DNA from: Thermoplasmata archaeon
GTDB lineage: Archaea; Thermoplasmatota; E2; DHVEG-1
DNA: 29,930 bases
Assembly (NCBI GenBank): GCA_003649845.1
Contig: QMTB01000001.1
Location: 1-29,930, forward strand
Reading direction: 5' to 3'
Every line of letters starts with the position of its first letter. The first letter of the stretch is position 1. The notes below the pieces were generated by a model. It had not been told where the DNA came from and searched no databases. It saw only the letters and a program-made list of their open reading frames with translations. The translations under genes and the position numbers were made by a program. Below, in pieces: positions 9,208 through 18,907 of the stretch.

Positions 9208-12200
9208 TTATTCTTCTCTTGCCAACAGTATATCAAAGGTTTTTACACCCTCCCCAACATTGACAATTAGATGTCCACTATAAGTATAGGTAACAATTTG
9301 ACCACTTACATTTACAGGTTGGCTAACAGAAACATTATATGTACCAGGTCTAAGTAATACACTATAGTAACCTGTTTCATCTGATCTAGCAGAGGAAAAT
9401 CTAGCGGTATTATTTGCGATAGAGCGATCAGGTGCAAATGCAATAGATACATTATATATTGGTATCATATCTTCTTGATCAATAGTTTGACCACTCACAT
9501 TTACAGGTATATAATCAATTGATACGTTTACTAATTTGGTCTTATTAGATTCAATAGTTACATTTTCTACACCAAAGTATCCAGGTAGTTTTGTAACATT
9601 AATCTGATAATCGCCTGGGGTGAGAGATCTAAAGGAATATCTACCTGTAGCATTTGTCACTAGAGAATCAACAAATTTATCAGTTGGAGTAGTTGTATAT
9701 ATAAGATTAACAGTTGCACCTTCTACTTCTTCACCAGCATCATATTCTCCATTATCATTCTTATCAAAGTATATTATACCAGATACATTACCTGGCTTTG
9801 GAAGTACTACATCATGGGTTGTGTTGCCCTCCGGCACCTTTATAAGTGTGTTCTCAATTTGGAAGCCATCAGGAGTTAAAACAGCTATCTGATATATACC
9901 TGGTAGTAAACCGGAGATGGTATAAGAACCATTTATATCCGTTCTAACATCTCGTATCATATTATAATCATATGTCTCTACTTGTCCTGTTTGGTTATCA
10001 AATGAGTTTATACCTCTAACTGCAACCTGTGCATTTGCAAGAGGTTGATCAACAGATGCATTATAACCACTCTCATTTCCCTTCTCATCATATACATAGC
10101 CTTTTATTGTCCCAGGTTTAATTTCAATTGTAATGAAACGAGTATTGTTATCAGTATTGCGCATAGCTTCATCTTCTGTTATAGGTGCTAGAGACGTATC
10201 ATTTTTGCTATTAAACGTTACATTAGTTACAGCAAAAGCATTGACACCGAGTTCAGGATAACGACGGACTTGTATACTTATATTACCAGCAGGCGCTATA
10301 ACATGGAATGAACCATTTACAGCTAAATCTCTATCATGATCAATTGGAATCTCTCCACCATAGAGAGATACATTCTTTCGAACTACAACTTGTAGATTCT
10401 GAGGTTTACCATCAAATAAAATAGTTCCATTGATATAGGCACCTTCATAGTATTTAGCGATAACTACAGCGGTTTTACCAGGGTTACCTTGGTAATATAT
10501 ATATTTTGGATATGGAGAAACATACTCTGCATAGAAATGGCGCATATTAAGACAGGGAATCTGATAATCTGGTTCAGTTTTTACTTTACCTCCACCAACG
10601 CCAGAGGATTTCTCAGTTGCAGGACCAATGTATGTTTTATAGAACATCGTATTGAAATATGCATCTTTATAGACTGTTTTTGTCTGTACAACTGGATCGG
10701 ATCTACTCTCAGCAACTGTCCTATCCTTCCATTCATCATATGTTAATTCTCTGCCACTCTGGGTAACAAATTTAATTTGAATAAAATCATCTTCAGGTAC
10801 ATCACCTTCTCTCATGGCAAGTAGAACTAAACTTTTATCTGCCAAGAAAGAGAAGATATTGAATATCTGTTTATCATATCCTTCAACACCATAGTATCTA
10901 ATACTTTTACCCGTTACCTTTTGTAGGTCATGATATAGCCAGGTTATATCCTCATCGTCTAATTTATTAGTTAGAAGAGCAGAGGCATCATGATAGACAG
11001 CATTCATAGGCCATTGTTCTCCAACTGGATGATCTTTAGCGATCTTATGATCATATGCAAGGGCGATAGGACGCCCATATGAGGGGGATTCCTCTGGATT
11101 CTCAACCCATTGAATAATCTTACTGCTATCGTTTTTCCCGAGGTGATCCTCTAAAACATTTTTAACAGACTCTGTGAGTTTACCATCATTATGGAAAACA
11201 TCTCCTTCAAGTAATCTAATTATCCATATGGAAACAGCTTCTTTCTCACTCGTAGCTGTATGAAAGTTTGCAGCAGGTGGTATACCATCTTGAAAGTTAT
11301 CAGCAACCGTAGGATGCCCACCTACAGCAACCTCATAAAATCCATAATCCCACCAGGAGATAAAGGCAGGTCTCTCAGCAGGATCTTCTATATCAGTATC
11401 CTGTGAAGCAAGCCATGTGTAGGCATCTACCCAATAACCCTCTTTACCGAGACCAGTAAAGAAAGCACCATTAGGTAGATCACCAAAGACCTTTTTCTTC
11501 TCTGTGAAAGGCACAGCAGCATCTAATGAAAGATAAGCATTTGGCAAGATAATAATCAAAGCTATGAGAAGTATTCCAAATATATGCATGAATTTAACCC
11601 CTCTCTTTAGACCATGTAAACCACCGCCAACGTTGCGTATAACTTTAACCATTTCAGGATAATTGATCTTATCAACTACATACCATGTGAAGTAGCTGCT
11701 AAATAATGCAACTAATGGGACTAAATCATTTAGGAAACGACCTGCACTAGCAGATAACCACATTTCTATAAAGAAAACAACTATCAGCAGGAGATGATCC
11801 CTACGTTGATTATATCTTATAAATCTATAAGCTATCAACAGGAAACCAGCCCAAGCAATCCAATATAATGCTGGACCAAAGGACATCACCGTTCTACTTA
11901 TACCATATACATTAGCCTCTGCGATAGTTTGAGATACTTTCTTACCATAAACTCCACCGCCATATATAATAGTCCATATATCCTTAAGGTGAGCAAGAGG
12001 AGGGAATATATCTGAGAGAACTGGTATAAAGTAAAGGAATATTAGTCCTGCTACAATAACAAGTAGGATAATAGGTACAGATAAAGTCCAAGGAATTCTC
12101 TTTCTATTTAGAATATAACATATAATTCCTAAGATAATTACTCCGGTAATTGTTAACAGAGGGGTATTAAAAACTATGCCATGTTTGGCAGATATCACTG

Positions 12201-13074
12201 GGAGAGAAATAATATAACCTGTAAATAAAACAAGGAATGAAGAAGTTGCAACCTTTAAATCAATTTTACTTCGATAGATGTCAACAAATATCTGAATTAT
12301 CGTGTAAGCAAATATAACTACGTATAAAAATTTAGCTTCAACCCAAACCATAGATAAACCTGCAAGGGGCATGCCCCCTAAAAGGGCATATAATCTGGAT
12401 TTTGTTTTATCAGATTCCTTTAAACTTTTTATAAGAAAAGCATAAGTTAAGAAGAAAAGGAGGAGGTTGAGAGAATCATGATCAAATAAAGTATATGCAG
12501 AACCATGACCGGAGCCTAGATGAATTGGAATTAAAGGTATAAATAGAGCAGCTAGGAGGCCTTCTTTTCTACCGAAAACAGTCCTTCCAATAACATATAT
12601 TGGGAAAACTATAAGCGCTCCAAATAAAGCAGGTATAAACTGCATAGAATAACCTATTGCATCAACCTCGCTCATAAAAGGAGTAAGGAACCTAGCAAAA
12701 GCTATAGCAAGCATATTCATAAGTGGAGCTCTACCGCCACTCCTTCCAAGAGGATAATTCAGTAGGGGATCATTATACGAATAATAGGGGTAATGTCCAG
12801 GGTTTTCACCATATAATGTTTCCTTAATTAATCTCATATTATAATATGGATCTGGACCGGATAGATAATATTTGGAAAAACCTTCACCAGTAGGATTAAA
12901 TGGTTCTCCACTTGTTACATTGAAATACGAGTTTAGAAATAAAACTAATAGGAAAATTGCAACTAGAGATAGAGCAATCCACCAGTTTTTAGGTAAAAAG
13001 CTTTTTAATGATTTAGCCTCTGTTGTTTTAGCAGATTCAGTTGATTTGGTTTTTTTCACTGCTCTTTTCCGCAT
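9208..13074 (-). CDS. aglB: Oligosaccharyltransferase AglB (STT3 family), long form with C-terminal carboxypeptidase-regulatory-like/SdrD-B-like beta-sandwich repeats
   Basis: About 13 TM segments; GPDPYY, FDHD, TIAE, WWDYG (11341-11355), ADNFQ. Start set at ATG 13074, preceded by AGGTGA, with a TTTATAAG box at 13122-13115. Confidence 0.95.
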   Translation of the reverse strand: MRKRAVKKTKSTESAKTTEAKSLKSFLPKNWWIALSLVAIFLLVLFLNSYFNVTSGEPFNPTGEGFSKYYLSGPDPYYNMRLIKETLYGENPGHYPYYSYNDPLLNYPLGRSGGRAPLMNMLAIAFARFLTPFMSEVDAIGYSMQFIPALFGALIVFPIYVIGRTVFGRKEGLLAALFIPLIPIHLGSGHGSAYTLFDHDSLNLLLFFLTYAFLIKSLKESDKTKSRLYALLGGMPLAGLSMVWVEAKFLYVVIFAYTIIQIFVDIYRSKIDLKVATSSFLVLFTGYIISLPVISAKHGIVFNTPLLTITGVIILGIICYILNRKRIPWTLSVPIILLVIVAGLIFLYFIPVLSDIFPPLAHLKDIWTIIYGGGVYGKKVSQTIAEANVYGISRTVMSFGPALYWIAWAGFLLIAYRFIRYNQRRDHLLLIVVFFIEMWLSASAGRFLNDLVPLVALFSSYFTWYVVDKINYPEMVKVIRNVGGGLHGLKRGVKFMHIFGILLIALIIILPNAYLSLDAAVPFTEKKKVFGDLPNGAFFTGLGKEGYWVDAYTWLASQDTDIEDPAERPAFISWWDYGFYEVAVGGHPTVADNFQDGIPPAANFHTATSEKEAVSIWIIRLLEGDVFHNDGKLTESVKNVLEDHLGKNDSSKIIQWVENPEESPSYGRPIALAYDHKIAKDHPVGEQWPMNAVYHDASALLTNKLDDEDITWLYHDLQKVTGKSIRYYGVEGYDKQIFNIFSFLADKSLVLLAMREGDVPEDDFIQIKFVTQSGRELTYDEWKDRTVAESRSDPVVQTKTVYKDAYFNTMFYKTYIGPATEKSSGVGGGKVKTEPDYQIPCLNMRHFYAEYVSPYPKYIYYQGNPGKTAVVIAKYYEGAYINGTILFDGKPQNLQVVVRKNVSLYGGEIPIDHDRDLAVNGSFHVIAPAGNISIQVRRYPELGVNAFAVTNVTFNSKNDTSLAPITEDEAMRNTDNNTRFITIEIKPGTIKGYVYDEKGNESGYNASVDQPLANAQVAVRGINSFDNQTGQVETYDYNMIRDVRTDINGSYTISGLLPGIYQIAVLTPDGFQIENTLIKVPEGNTTHDVVLPKPGNVSGIIYFDKNDNGEYDAGEEVEGATVNLIYTTTPTDKFVDSLVTNATGRYSFRSLTPGDYQINVTKLPGYFGVENVTIESNKTKLVNVSIDYIPVNVSGQTIDQEDMIPIYNVSIAFAPDRSIANNTARFSSARSDETGYYSVLLRPGTYNVSVSQPVNVSGQIVTYTYSGHLIVNVGEGVKTFDILLAREE

Positions 13075-13112
13075 TATTCTCACCTTATCTTGATTCACAC
13101 TTGTAAAAAGAT

Positions 13113-13127: not shown

Positions 13128-13985
13128 TTACTTACCTTTTAGCATCTCTGCTAACAGTGGAGCAACCTTAACTTTGCTAAAAGGATTAGGTATTGTGTCT
13201 GTTGTAACTATCTCATCACATCCAGCGTTTCTTATTTTTTCAATGGCATTACCTGCAAAAACACCATGGATGCAGGCTGCAATAGCTTTCTCTGCCCCCT
13301 GTCTTTTAAGTTCCTCTATAGAGGAAGCTATGGTTCCACCTGTAGAAATGATATCATCTACTATAGCTATATTTTTCCCATTTACATCGAGTTTCTTAGG
13401 AGTAACTTCTATAGTTATCCCATCTATACGAGTCTTCTCTAGATAGTCTACTTCACATTTTAGGATATCTGCAGCTACTTCTGCTCGTTTCAATGCACCT
13501 TTATCTGGTGCAAGAACCATATCTATGTTTTTATCTTTGAGATAATCAGCTATCAATGGAATCGCTGAAGATACCTTACAAGGTATACCAAAGAAATCAG
13601 AAATATATTCTTTATGAGGATCGATTGTAACAACGTCATCTGCGTCTATACTAATTATCCTAGCAATAGCCTTAGCGCTTATTGGTTCACCTTCATTGAA
13701 TTTTCTATCCTGTCTTGCATATCCCATATATGGGATAACAGCCGTTATATTATCTGCATTAGCCTCTCTAGCAGCATTTAGAATTAGAAGCAATTCGATA
13801 ATACTTTCATCTGGATATGCTGTTTGTATAACTACTATTCTATGCCCCTTTATTTCCTCTGGAATTCGTAAGTATAACTCTCCATCTGGAAATCTCTTAC
13901 TCACTAAATCTATCAAGGGCATTTTGAGGAGTTTTGATAAATCCTCTGCAATTGATTTTGATCTACTCCCGCCGATTATCATCAT
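13128..13985 (-). CDS. prs: Ribose-phosphate pyrophosphokinase (archaeal type)
   Basis: RFPDGELYLR, PYMGYARQDR, GEPISA, LAPDKGAL, PRPP-binding IVDDIISTGGT, HGVF, TDTI. ATG 13985 preferred over GTG 13997. Confidence 0.96.
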   Translation of the reverse strand: MMIIGGSRSKSIAEDLSKLLKMPLIDLVSKRFPDGELYLRIPEEIKGHRIVVIQTAYPDESIIELLLILNAAREANADNITAVIPYMGYARQDRKFNEGEPISAKAIARIISIDADDVVTIDPHKEYISDFFGIPCKVSSAIPLIADYLKDKNIDMVLAPDKGALKRAEVAADILKCEVDYLEKTRIDGITIEVTPKKLDVNGKNIAIVDDIISTGGTIASSIEELKRQGAEKAIAACIHGVFAGNAIEKIRNAGCDEIVTTDTIPNPFSKVKVAPLLAEMLKGK

Positions 13986-14040
13986 GGTTTCATTCACAAT
14001 AATAAAAATTTAGTTTTAAATTGTTTTCATATCATCGAAT

Positions 14041-14058
14041 ACAAAATTTTTATAAACA
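14041..14058 (+). promoter_or_regulatory. Putative BRE/TATA promoter of the large surface protein gene
   Basis: acaaaa-TTTTTATAAA at 14047-14056, about 40-50 nt upstream of ATG 14097. Confidence 0.5.
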
Positions 14059-14096
14059 CAGTTGGCTATAGTTCTTCTATTCTGGATGTGGATGTG

Positions 14097-16256
14097 ATGT
14101 ATATAAAATGGTGGCTAATAATAGCAAGCATAATTTGTTTTACAATTCTTCTTACAATCCCCTCTTTTGGAGAGGAAACAAGCAGTATCTCTGCAGATAT
14201 AAATATAGATGTTTCAACAGGAACAAATTTTACAACATATATAGATATGAAAGTGGAAAAGATATATCTATCTGCAAGTGAATTAACCTATACAGCTGAG
14301 GAGATAGCAGATCTTGCAAATAATAATCCAGAGATACTCGGTGCTATAAAATATGCTCTCAAGGATTTTATTTTAAATCAGCTTAGAGAGAGTTTTAAAG
14401 AAGCGAAGATAACGCCTCTAAAAGAACTACCTACATATGAAGACAATCTTTTCCATGATGAATATAAAATAGATTTAACGCCTAAATTTTTTAGTCTAAA
14501 TGATTCCATCGATATATATAATCTTATAAACGGTTTACTTAACATTGGAGGGATAGTAAATTATTCTTTTCCATTACATGCAGAGGAGGGTTGGAAAAAC
14601 ATCTATAAATTCATATTACCTACTCATCTAACATTTAAAAGAACAACGGGACTAGTTAAAAACAATGAGATAACATGGATCGTAGATAATAAAGATGGAT
14701 TGATAAATCTTAGAAAGGCAGAACTATCACTTATGTCTAAAAAATCAAATGAATTGAATAAAAATGAAGATGTTTTGATGGTAAATTTTATTTTAAATGC
14801 AACAAAACCAGAGAAGATTGGGTTAACCTCAGAGATGCTAATAAAAAACCTTGGGTTAAAAAACTATAGGATATCACCCGATTTCATATACAATATCTCT
14901 GGATTACCCGCAGATGGTATAAGATTGTGTGCAAAAAATGGTCTTTTACATTGGGATACAATCTATGAGAGAACATTATCATCTCAGATATATAGAATTA
15001 AAAAAGTCTTGGAAAATTCTTCTCTAAATCAATCGATAGAGTTGAACTTCTCATGGGATCCATCCACTACAACAGATTGTAAAAATCCATATAATGTCTC
15101 TCATATGGATGAAACACCACCTGTTAAAGGTATTTTAAGAGATGAAGAAATCAATCTAACTATACATAGATTACCCGCAAGAGCAGTATTTGGATTGGTT
15201 AATGCTGGAGCGAAAGTAAACCTAAATAATATGGATATAAATTTTGGGGATCATCTAGGAGATATAAAATTACCTTACAATTGTACATTCATTCTACCAG
15301 ATCATATTTTCATCAATGGAGAGAATCCATATAGATGGAATGAAAATCACTCCCTTAATGGAGAGATGTACTCAGATATAGCCCCTATATATAGTGAAGA
15401 AAAAATAGATACTCATATAGATTTCTCAATAGAAGATATGGATCTCAATCTACTGAGTTTCTTCTCAGGTAGAACAGAGATTTCAACTGGATTGTATCTT
15501 GAAGAGAAAGAAAATCGAAGTGTATCGAAGATTCCATATACATTTCATATACCAAGCGAGATAAATATATCTCTTCTAAATTCTGATGCTTTTAGAATAT
15601 GCATAGAAGAAGGAGTATTTAAGGAAAATGAGGTTAAAACATTTTTAAATGATGAAGCAAGTTTATTTAAAATTCTGATAGAAGAGATACTACCTGGTGC
15701 AGATATAAACGTTAAATCAAATGTAGATAAATTTCAGGAATCGTTGAAATGGGATGAAGATATCTCTATTATGGATGGAAATAAGCCCATAAGTATTATT
15801 TCAACCTCTCATGTAACATATCCCCTCTCGTTTAACTTCTCAATTATACCTCCTTCTTTTAAAGTTTTACCATGGAATCTAACCCTAAGAGGCATCAGAG
15901 ATCAAAACGTTACATATAGATTGATATTCCCAGATGGAATATATGTAATGGCTAATGATTCTCTAGGCAAAACATCTACAAAGAAAATTGGAAATCATTA
16001 TCTAATTGAGATTAATTTCAACAAAGAAGAAGCAAACTCCACAGATTACATCTCTATCAAAATGCAACCTTCCTTATTATTTATAATAGGCTTATTTTCA
16101 CCTTGTCTATTAAGTATAATAGTAGCCTCTATATTGTTTATACTAATATACATTCTAAGGAGGAAGAGGAGAAGAATATATCCCTCTCAAGAACAACAAA
16201 GATACGAAGAGCAGGAGTATTATATACCTCCACCTCCTCAGAATCTAAATAGATAG
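14097..16256 (+). CDS. Hypothetical secreted, C-terminally membrane-anchored surface glycoprotein with about 3 internal repeats
   Basis: N-terminal signal peptide (KWWLIIASIICFTILLTIPSFG), 19 N-X-S/T sequons, C-terminal TM followed by RRKRRR and a Q/E/Y/P-rich tail. GTG 14088 is an alternative start. Confidence 0.8.
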   Translation: MYIKWWLIIASIICFTILLTIPSFGEETSSISADINIDVSTGTNFTTYIDMKVEKIYLSASELTYTAEEIADLANNNPEILGAIKYALKDFILNQLRESFKEAKITPLKELPTYEDNLFHDEYKIDLTPKFFSLNDSIDIYNLINGLLNIGGIVNYSFPLHAEEGWKNIYKFILPTHLTFKRTTGLVKNNEITWIVDNKDGLINLRKAELSLMSKKSNELNKNEDVLMVNFILNATKPEKIGLTSEMLIKNLGLKNYRISPDFIYNISGLPADGIRLCAKNGLLHWDTIYERTLSSQIYRIKKVLENSSLNQSIELNFSWDPSTTTDCKNPYNVSHMDETPPVKGILRDEEINLTIHRLPARAVFGLVNAGAKVNLNNMDINFGDHLGDIKLPYNCTFILPDHIFINGENPYRWNENHSLNGEMYSDIAPIYSEEKIDTHIDFSIEDMDLNLLSFFSGRTEISTGLYLEEKENRSVSKIPYTFHIPSEINISLLNSDAFRICIEEGVFKENEVKTFLNDEASLFKILIEEILPGADINVKSNVDKFQESLKWDEDISIMDGNKPISIISTSHVTYPLSFNFSIIPPSFKVLPWNLTLRGIRDQNVTYRLIFPDGIYVMANDSLGKTSTKKIGNHYLIEINFNKEEANSTDYISIKMQPSLLFIIGLFSPCLLSIIVASILFILIYILRRKRRRIYPSQEQQRYEEQEYYIPPPPQNLNR

Positions 16257-17425
16257 GGTAGGAAAGATGCTGCTTTAAGAGGATGATTTCTAATCATATA
16301 TCTAACTAGTTTAGAGGGATAATCAATATCACCGTATTTAGATATAGTTTCTAGAATAATCGGTTGATCGATTTTACGAAGTATAGCATCTATTTTATCG
16401 TCAGTAAGTTTCAAAAAAACATTCCTTAATTTCATGTCAAAGAGTAGCTCGCGACCTATATCTTTCATCCAAGAAAGATGATAATTCTGCAAAGCCTTCT
16501 CTATAAGCACAGGGGTCTTTAAATCAACTGCTCTACTAATAGCATCTATACAATATTTCGCTGCTGATAAACCTGGATAGAGTCCTCCACCAGATGTTGG
16601 TTTAACTTGTGCTGCAGCATCTCCAACTAGAAGGATATTTGATTTAACAGTTTTTTTAAGAGGGCCTAGAGGAATTATACCTCCGGTATAATTAATAATA
16701 GTGGATCTCTCAGTACCTCTCTGAACTTCTGGATGATTTAAAAGTTTATCAAGATAATGTTTTGGAGGAAGTTTATCTCTATTTACACATAAACCAATAC
16801 GTGCCTCTGTTCCCCTAGGAGTTATGGGTATAATCCATGCAAAAAATCCAGGTGCAATATTTAATCCAAGGAATATTTCAACATAATTTGGATTGAATGA
16901 TGTATCCAAAAGATTTACACCTATACATTTGAGATATTCCATAGGTTGAGGGAAATTAAAAACGCGTCTTACAATAGAAGCTGCACCATCTGCTCCAATT
17001 AAAAATCTGCTAGATAATTCTTCCTTAGATGTTTTAATTTTAATCTCATCATTGTAGGATCTCATCTCCTCTACTTTATTGTTTAGAAAAACATCTGCAC
17101 CTTTCTCAATTGCATAATTCATCATAGCTTTGTCAAAAGCTATACGATCTATAGCTAAAGCATGGATTCTATCTCCTCCAATAGAAAGTTTGTAACCAAG
17201 AGGGGAATGGATAACAGCTCCTTTAATTCTATTTAAAACTAGATTTTCAGATGGAAAAGGTGTTAGTGAGAGAACACGAGATGTAACAAGACCTGCGCAG
17301 TGTAAAGGTAAACCAACGTTCTCATGTTCTTCAAAAACAACTGTGTTTACACCTCTCTCAGCTAATCCTCCAGCTACGAGAAGACCTATAGGACCTCCAC
17401 CTACTATACCTACTGTATATCTCAT
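16238..17425 (-). CDS. Geranylgeranyl reductase-family FAD-dependent oxidoreductase (paralog 1)
   Basis: GGGPIG Rossmann motif, HCAGLV, IDRIAFD, GADGAAS, APGFFAWIIP, VGDAAAQVKPTSGGGLY. Confidence 0.9.
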   Translation of the reverse strand: MRYTVGIVGGGPIGLLVAGGLAERGVNTVVFEEHENVGLPLHCAGLVTSRVLSLTPFPSENLVLNRIKGAVIHSPLGYKLSIGGDRIHALAIDRIAFDKAMMNYAIEKGADVFLNNKVEEMRSYNDEIKIKTSKEELSSRFLIGADGAASIVRRVFNFPQPMEYLKCIGVNLLDTSFNPNYVEIFLGLNIAPGFFAWIIPITPRGTEARIGLCVNRDKLPPKHYLDKLLNHPEVQRGTERSTIINYTGGIIPLGPLKKTVKSNILLVGDAAAQVKPTSGGGLYPGLSAAKYCIDAISRAVDLKTPVLIEKALQNYHLSWMKDIGRELLFDMKLRNVFLKLTDDKIDAILRKIDQPIILETISKYGDIDYPSKLVRYMIRNHPLKAASFLPYLFRF

Positions 17426-18157: not shown

Positions 18158-18907
18158 TTATTGATGTCTCCTTCTTTTCAATAGAATAAATGAGGCTCCA
18201 ACTGCAGCTATAAACACTAGTGCTTCGAAACCAGGTGTTCTCGGAGGAGTTACACCTCCGTTACCATTTTCTCCGCCGGTACCTTCATTACCGCCACCTG
18301 CACCTTCATCGCCACTAGTATTATCATTATTGGTAGAAGAACCTCCGCCGGCGTTTTGTTCTCCCCACCAAGGGGAATGTTCATTTGGTATCCAATCACC
18401 CCACCATTCACTAAAAGTATCACCAGGAGATATATATTCTGCAGCATAACCCCAGAGATCTATATTGCTATAATCTGTTCCAACTACGGTGAATGTACAA
18501 GAAATAGTGTCACCTGTAGCCTGTATATCCGAGGTTTGATTAAACTGTCCACTATACCCATTTCCACTCATAGCAAAACCATATCCTGAGCCGTTACTCC
18601 AATACATCCAGTAGTTTGCATCTGAGGTATTGAGATAAGCCCAATATCCAACTAACTCAGAGTTTTGTATTGTACCAGATACTTTAAGATTAATCGTTAA
18701 TTTATCTCCATTTAATGTATAAGATAGCTCAGTTATATCAATCTCAGGTTTATTACCTATGTTATACTCCCAACCCCAGGAGGTTGCAGTAACCCTCCAA
18801 TGTGCTACATCACCAGTTGGATCTGATATTGCTTCAGCTGATGCGAAACCGCCTAAGAATATAAACGCTGATAGAGCAGCTATAAGAATCTTATTTCTTT
18901 TTTTCAT
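18158..18907 (-). CDS. Secreted surface protein with a PGF-CTERM (archaeosortase) sorting signal
   Basis: Signal peptide MKKRNKILIAALSAFIFLGGFASA; aromatic-rich beta domain; Gly/Asn/Glu-rich linker; C-terminal TPGFEALVFIAAVGASFILLKRRRHQ (PGF at 18227-18235, TM, basic tail). Confidence 0.88.
   Translation of the reverse strand: MKKRNKILIAALSAFIFLGGFASAEAISDPTGDVAHWRVTATSWGWEYNIGNKPEIDITELSYTLNGDKLTINLKVSGTIQNSELVGYWAYLNTSDANYWMYWSNGSGYGFAMSGNGYSGQFNQTSDIQATGDTISCTFTVVGTDYSNIDLWGYAAEYISPGDTFSEWWGDWIPNEHSPWWGEQNAGGGSSTNNDNTSGDEGAGGGNEGTGGENGNGGVTPPRTPGFEALVFIAAVGASFILLKRRRHQ
18244..18353 (-). repeat. Low-complexity Gly-rich linker within the PGF-CTERM protein
   Basis: Encodes AGGGSSTNNDNTSGDEGAGGGNEGTGGENGNGGVTP. 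Confidence 0.7.

Follow-up and report, generated by a model that had tools for sequence, protein, structure and literature searches.

An undescribed domain repeated three times in a predicted envelope protein of Thermoplasmata archaea

A gene at positions 14,097 to 16,256 of contig QMTB01000001.1 from a Thermoplasmata archaeon encodes a protein of 719 amino acids (P0001, hereafter the target). Profile comparisons confirm that its predicted external part consists of three homologous copies of one domain, A, B, and C, with B and C resembling each other most. The domain had been suspected to be undescribed, and it indeed has no sequence match in Pfam, NCBIfam, or the Protein Data Bank (PDB). The whole stretch of DNA analyzed, 29,930 nucleotides of this contig, is called the window, and all positions refer to it. 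The target gene is present as a single copy in its genome, and its parts are as follows.

14097..16256 (+), complete coding sequence of the target (719 codons and a stop codon)
14097..14171 (+), predicted signal peptide, residues 1–25: K4, hydrophobic residues 5–22, then SFG/EE; read from the sequence, with a model helix at 5–19 and low predicted local distance difference test (pLDDT) values at 20–26
14175..14753 (+), repeat domain A, residues 27–219: GLLNIGGIVN (146), GW (165–166), YKFILPTHL (170)
14754..15389 (+), repeat domain B, residues 220–431: PADGIRLC (helix 272–280), NQS..F.WD, MDETPPV, GLVNAGA, CTFILPDHI
15390..16070 (+), repeat domain C, residues 432–658, membrane-proximal: NSDAFRICIEEGVF (helix 496–504), SLKWD, MDGNKPI, TYRLIFPDGI
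16071..16157 (+), transmembrane (TM) helix, residues 659–687, with conserved G665, P669, C670, and S673
16158..16253 (+), cytoplasmic tail, residues 688–719 (32 residues): RRKRRR stop-transfer, then 26 residues with YEEQE-YYIPPPP
16218..16238 (+), YYIPPPP tail motif, Y708–P714

Threefold repeat and predicted topology

The repeat is not detectable in the single sequence: a self-BLAST of the target returned the identity match alone, and Smith–Waterman comparison with shuffled sequences gave z = 2.1 for B–C and approximately 0 for A–B and A–C. Twenty-four relatives with 33–74% identity were retrieved, which together with the target form a 25-sequence alignment (A1). In profile–profile comparison of the sub-alignments of A1, B matched C with E values of 1e-9 to 5e-9 (probability 96% at 5e-9), and the A–B and A–C matches were weak but colinear. 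Deeper profiles were built from non-overlapping segments of the wider family: 73 for A, 87 for B, and 100 for C. With these, the E values (local and global) were 1e-15 and 8e-19 for B–C, 2e-8 and 8e-10 for A–C, and 8e-5 and 7e-6 for A–B, and the alignments spanned 170–195 columns, nearly the whole domain. All of the controls (6 reversed and 15 column-shuffled profiles) gave E ≥ 0.12. The threefold repeat is regarded as confirmed because the deep profiles are significant over nearly the full length, the controls are clean, and the motif pairs are in register.

An earlier note on this DNA, made from the sequence alone, had proposed a threefold repeat of ~210–226 residues on the basis of motifs visible by eye, and profile comparison bears this out. 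The self-alignment by which the note wished the repeat to be judged is significant with homolog profiles but not with the single sequence. All nine motifs that it quoted occur in the 719-residue translation, the spacings of 224, 226, 211, 220, and 222 residues are correct, and the quoted motif pairs align with each other in the profile–profile alignments. The NIS, GL.N.G, and MD..P motifs lie where the note had placed them, whereas each of the three Y/C-x-hIhP motifs starts 6 nt earlier (14604, 15282, and 15915).

The whole-protein AlphaFold2 model, calculated from A1, had a pLDDT of 86.6 and a predicted template modeling score of 0.69, and domain B modeled alone from 64 sequences reached a pLDDT of 94.4. 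In the model, the same order of elements recurs three times: each unit opens with two long strands and a short one, continues with helices of 9 and 21 residues, and closes with five to eight strands. The domain is thus predicted to be an undescribed α/β-sandwich, that is, a β-sandwich with an inserted helix pair. A D-x-x-R-[LI] motif is conserved on the first short helix of B and C, and the invariant polar residues on this exposed helix are D273 and R276 in B and D497, R500, and E505 in C. D497, R500, and P612 of domain C are nearly invariant in the superfamily.

The signal peptide, C-terminal TM helix, and Tyr/Pro-rich cytoplasmic tail that the earlier note had read in the sequence are supported by a hydrophobic model helix at residues 5–19 and a second model helix at 660–694. 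The target accordingly shows the type I topology of a signal peptide, external domains, and one C-terminal TM helix, as found in Ost1, a subunit of the eukaryotic oligosaccharyltransferase (OST). The 19 N-glycosylation sequons (N-x-S/T) counted before were confirmed. In 2000 shuffles of the ectodomain, 7.8 ± 2.4 sequons were expected, and none of the shuffles reached 19. The sequon density is 3.0 per 100 residues in the target versus 0–0.7 per 100 residues (0–2 sequons) in its cytoplasmic neighbors. Each of the 24 homologs has 9–22 sequons, and 60% or more of the homologs have a sequon in each of five alignment columns (N135, N155, and N311 of P0001, and residues 167 and 415). Sequon enrichment in an exported and anchored ectodomain, a trait of surface (S)-layer glycoproteins, is therefore found in the target. 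Together, the sequence, the model helices, and the sequon enrichment support the earlier description as a surface protein of type I topology that is rich in sequons.

The YYxPPPP end of the tail is nearly invariant in the order-level family (conservation of Y709, P711, P712, and P714 is 90% or higher) and serves as a marker of it, and the tails of more distant members vary widely. No second protein with this motif was found in the genome.

Fold, family, and distribution

Searches of the target, the 24 relatives, and 50 distant relatives against Pfam, NCBIfam, and PDB sequences gave no match; weak matches to TMEM154, Syndecan, and EphA2_TM were rejected, being confined to the TM helix and the basic tail. 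When 1.8 billion representative sequences were searched with a profile, 266 proteins scored E ≤ 0.001. All of the relatives that bear a name are called "hypothetical protein" and come from metagenome-assembled genomes (MAGs) of Thermoplasmatota. Among 301 Thermoplasmatota genomes, full-length orthologs are present in both families of the order (34 of 35 and four of four genomes), in the lineage to which the SG8-52-1 and SM1-50 MAGs belong. None were found in the other sampled orders of the class, and weaker matches to the family occur in many other Thermoplasmatota families. Vertical inheritance within Thermoplasmatota best explains the presence of the target gene. The length of the orthologs is nearly fixed within the order (715–750 residues). 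Domain hidden Markov models (HMMs) revealed architectures of two to six copies, from A–C (~490–516 residues) through A–B–C, which is the majority, to six domains (1.1–1.5 thousand residues), and domain C is adjacent to the membrane in all of them. The result is a phylum-wide, unannotated domain of ~200 residues. Its boundaries are clear, its motifs conserved, and its model confident, and registration as a new family would be possible. Archaeal surface glycoproteins built from repeats, the kind of protein to which the target would belong, are familiar; the domain family itself is undescribed.

The structural comparison that the earlier note had suggested also supported three copies of one fold, and it indicated a nearest solved architecture that the note had missed. 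In a Foldseek search of the PDB with the whole model, the eight best matches were all Ost1/ribophorin I (RPN1) chains of the yeast or human OST (E = 1.5e-7 to 8e-5; 6S7O_E, 8B6L_O, 6EZN_A, 6C26_1, 7OCI_A, and 8AGB_E; Pfam PF04597), and the next fold family followed from 7e-4. These scores tie with single-domain matches to domain A, namely, Ang-1 (8.2) and PA4063, ZrgA, and LppM (7.3–7.4), and fall in the range that the tool calls common. Domains A and C share matches to the N-domains of M1/M61 peptidases, the ectodomains of pentameric ligand-gated ion channels (pLGICs), PIG-T, and Ost1, and B matches the same set more weakly. We read the models as three domains that share one sandwich fold without a close solved relative. 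Ost1 appears to stand out as the only solved protein that combines the same tandem arrangement with a C-terminal TM helix, not by any Ost1-like single domain. Neither of the two outcomes that would have spoken against an undescribed repeat domain, namely, three unrelated folds or a match to a known family, was observed.

The other fold neighbors differ from the target in various respects. The periplasmic metal-binding β-sandwich domains PA4063, ZrgA, and Ang-1 (HupE/UreJ) and Mycobacterium tuberculosis LppM have 6–11% sequence identity with it and are single-domain proteins, either soluble or lipid-anchored. The N-terminal β-sandwich of M1/M61 aminopeptidases (APN, ERAP1, LTA4H, and tricorn factor F3) and the DUF3857-type structures (PDB 3KD4 and 4G2A) have a comparable fold. 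The target differs from these domains in having no catalytic domain or Pfam hit and in its inserted helix pair, tandem triplication, and membrane anchor. Neither a profile match to the M1 N-domain or DUF3857 nor a peptidase or transglutaminase catalytic partner domain was found. Feature and structure searches of the ESM Atlas gave only leads (TM-scores of 0.25–0.5 on a poor Atlas model). A viral fold library gave no credible match (best probability, 0.20), and a class II fusogen reading was dropped (dengue E match, probability 0.18).

Gene neighborhood and transcription signals

Synteny was analyzed at 72 related loci from species-representative MAGs, and the counts below use informative loci. 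The target (plus strand) lies in a conserved block, in which amidohydrolase, AMMECR1, aglB, and prs genes are on the minus strand and a convergent paralog of the geranylgeranyl reductase (GGR) family, DUF5749, and PTH2 follow. The relevant neighbors in the window, and the gene at the equivalent upstream position in other classes, are as follows.

9208..13098 (−), aglB, STT3-family oligosaccharyltransferase of 1296 residues, divergent from the target, with prs between
13128..13997 (−), prs, between aglB and the target
13998..14096, divergent spacer of 99 nt between prs and the target
14047..14058 (+), TATA-box-like TTTTTATAAACA, ~40 nt before the ATG in this spacer, as read from the sequence
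16238..17425 (−), GGR-family paralog, convergent, with a 19-nt 3′ overlap with the target; the most conserved neighbor
Trm5/TYW2 methyltransferase in other classes: L087, 5723–6748; L096, 5212–6237; L104, 7774–8424; L105, 6723–7814

The GGR paralog is directly downstream at all 62 loci of the order, prs is upstream at 60 of 63, and aglB is upstream at 49 of 54, the five exceptions being upheld by a lenient search. Orthologs in other classes, two-domain forms among them, have retained the convergent GGR paralog (four loci in four distant families: L087, L096, L104, and L105), and their divergent upstream neighbor is a Trm5/TYW2 tRNA methyltransferase in place of prs–aglB. No aglB was found beside these orthologs; it lies on other contigs or ~0.9 Mb away. 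The prs–aglB block thus appears to have been placed beside the target only in this order. Because synteny within the order extends to the entire block and the link is lost elsewhere, the aglB neighborhood is a lineage-specific synteny and not a conserved functional coupling, and aglB adjacency was down-weighted as functional evidence. The position of the target is conserved among housekeeping genes (the GGR paralog, DUF5749, PTH2, and prs or Trm5).

STT3/AglB reading frames are also very long elsewhere in Thermoplasmata's phylum, Thermoplasmatota, at 1279–3185 residues (G021:C7, G003:C4, G141:C4, G037:C1, and G018:C15). A further exported protein of 249 residues is encoded at 18158–18907 (−); it has a Gly/Asn/Glu-rich linker and a C-terminal PGFEALVFIAAVGASFILLKRRRHQ, which resembles a PGF-CTERM archaeosortase signal, has no Pfam hit, and occurs at only 15 of the 72 related loci.

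As to the gene start, an in-frame GTG lies 9 nt 5′ of the ATG. The ATG at 14097 is preferred over this GTG (14088), and the homologs begin at an equivalent M-x-IK. TTTTTATAAACA is a putative promoter element of the target gene.

Possible roles of the protein

Here, we tentatively propose that the target is a membrane-anchored, heavily N-glycosylated envelope protein, in which a stack of three domains stands outside and a conserved tail docks a cytoplasmic partner; among the explanations considered, this is the one we favor, at somewhat less than even confidence. After removal of the signal peptide, the ectodomain would comprise A, B, and C, each of ~195–230 residues. AglB would decorate numerous N-x-S/T sites in it, including several conserved ones, and the aglB product is probably the glycosylating enzyme. 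The single C-terminal helix would hold the ectodomain on the outer face of the cytoplasmic membrane, and the YYxPPPP end of the tail most likely docks a partner inside. The role may be a structural, glycan-bearing one, as a coat or stalk, whose height would be set by the number of repeats (2–6 in relatives). Such a protein would mark a conserved, probably major, and by prediction N-glycosylated envelope component of abundant uncultured sediment Thermoplasmatota.

Several observations weigh against this proposal. No Pfam or NCBIfam family of known S-layer or surface proteins passes its cut-off in the target or its family. The conservation is high for a coat protein: sequences within the order are 33–74% identical, and charged residues on the helix are invariant. 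The conserved tail is likewise more suggestive of a specific interaction between molecules than of a passive coat. A genome search for WW and SH3 domains as tail partners returned only sub-threshold noise, the same as in control genomes.

The first alternative is distant kinship or functional analogy with Ost1/ribophorin I: the target would act as a noncatalytic partner of AglB beside its external domain and would handle nascent acceptor or glycosylated peptides. Ost1 has two similar β-rich lumenal domains and one TM helix (PMC7226087), and the A–C two-domain orthologs would then represent the ancestral Ost1-like build. The similarity over the whole chain speaks for this explanation, and we consider it unlikely in view of the weak per-domain scores, the aglB linkage that is not conserved, and the negative results with the Ribophorin_I (PF04597) profile. 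This profile gave no match at E ≤ 10 in the target, 25 family members, or the genome; for the 50 distant relatives, the 25 families listed did not include Ribophorin_I at E ≤ 1; and none of the 301 Thermoplasmatota genomes had a protein passing the HMM cut-off. The only weak match (L073, G174:C27; E = 0.006, positions 5–53) was a false positive in the coiled-coil ATPase head of an SMC protein. More doubtful still is the narrower claim that the family is a very divergent Ost1/ribophorin I homolog working with AglB. OST1 has been placed only in eukaryotes, Asgard archaea, and TACK archaea (PMC11417166 and PMC10307638). If that claim were true, the family would provide the first noncatalytic OST subunit outside these groups, and a two-domain Ost1-like helper would predate the major archaeal split and have been triplicated or expanded in Thermoplasmatota. 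In any case, the Ost1-like build makes the target a candidate AglB partner that can be tested, in a lineage whose OST is assumed to have a single subunit.

A second alternative, which we hold to be improbable, is a surface receptor, sensor, or ligand-binding protein, whose domains would bind a peptide, glycan, or metal and whose tail would relay a signal or serve as an anchor inside. Its fold neighbors are ligand-binding ectodomains or walls of peptide channels (pLGIC ectodomains, the metal-binding PA4063, ZrgA, and Ang-1, and the M1/M61 N-domains), and the invariant polar residues on the exposed helix (D273/R276 and D497/R500/E505), the near-invariant YYxPPPP tail, and the diverse cytoplasmic tails of distant relatives, including zinc ribbons, are consistent with it.

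The least likely of the explanations is the one preferred in the earlier note, a lattice-forming S-layer protein of these archaea: the large sequon-rich ectodomain with its C-terminal membrane anchor and the location near aglB and another anchored surface protein (18158–18907) fit it, but the lack of S-layer family matches, the unusual conservation and fixed length within the order, the housekeeping chromosomal context, and the conserved cytoplasmic tail, atypical of S-layer proteins, do not. None of the tests made spoke for lattice formation or for an adhesin. The target is like archaeal S-layer glycoproteins in its signal peptide, sequon-rich ectodomain of repeated β-rich domains, and C-terminal membrane anchor, and unlike them in belonging to another domain family, lacking a PGF-CTERM/archaeosortase signal, and having a conserved cytoplasmic tail.

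The YYxPPPP motif may point to a cytoplasmic binding partner of the envelope protein proposed here. In distant relatives, the tail may be short and basic or long and acidic, or it may contain zinc ribbons. Among these distant members, such as P0146, P0159, P0107, and P0112, some have cytoplasmic zinc-ribbon or IBR-like tails and others have acidic tails of well over 75 residues. The external repeats are thus paired with very different intracellular ends across the superfamily.
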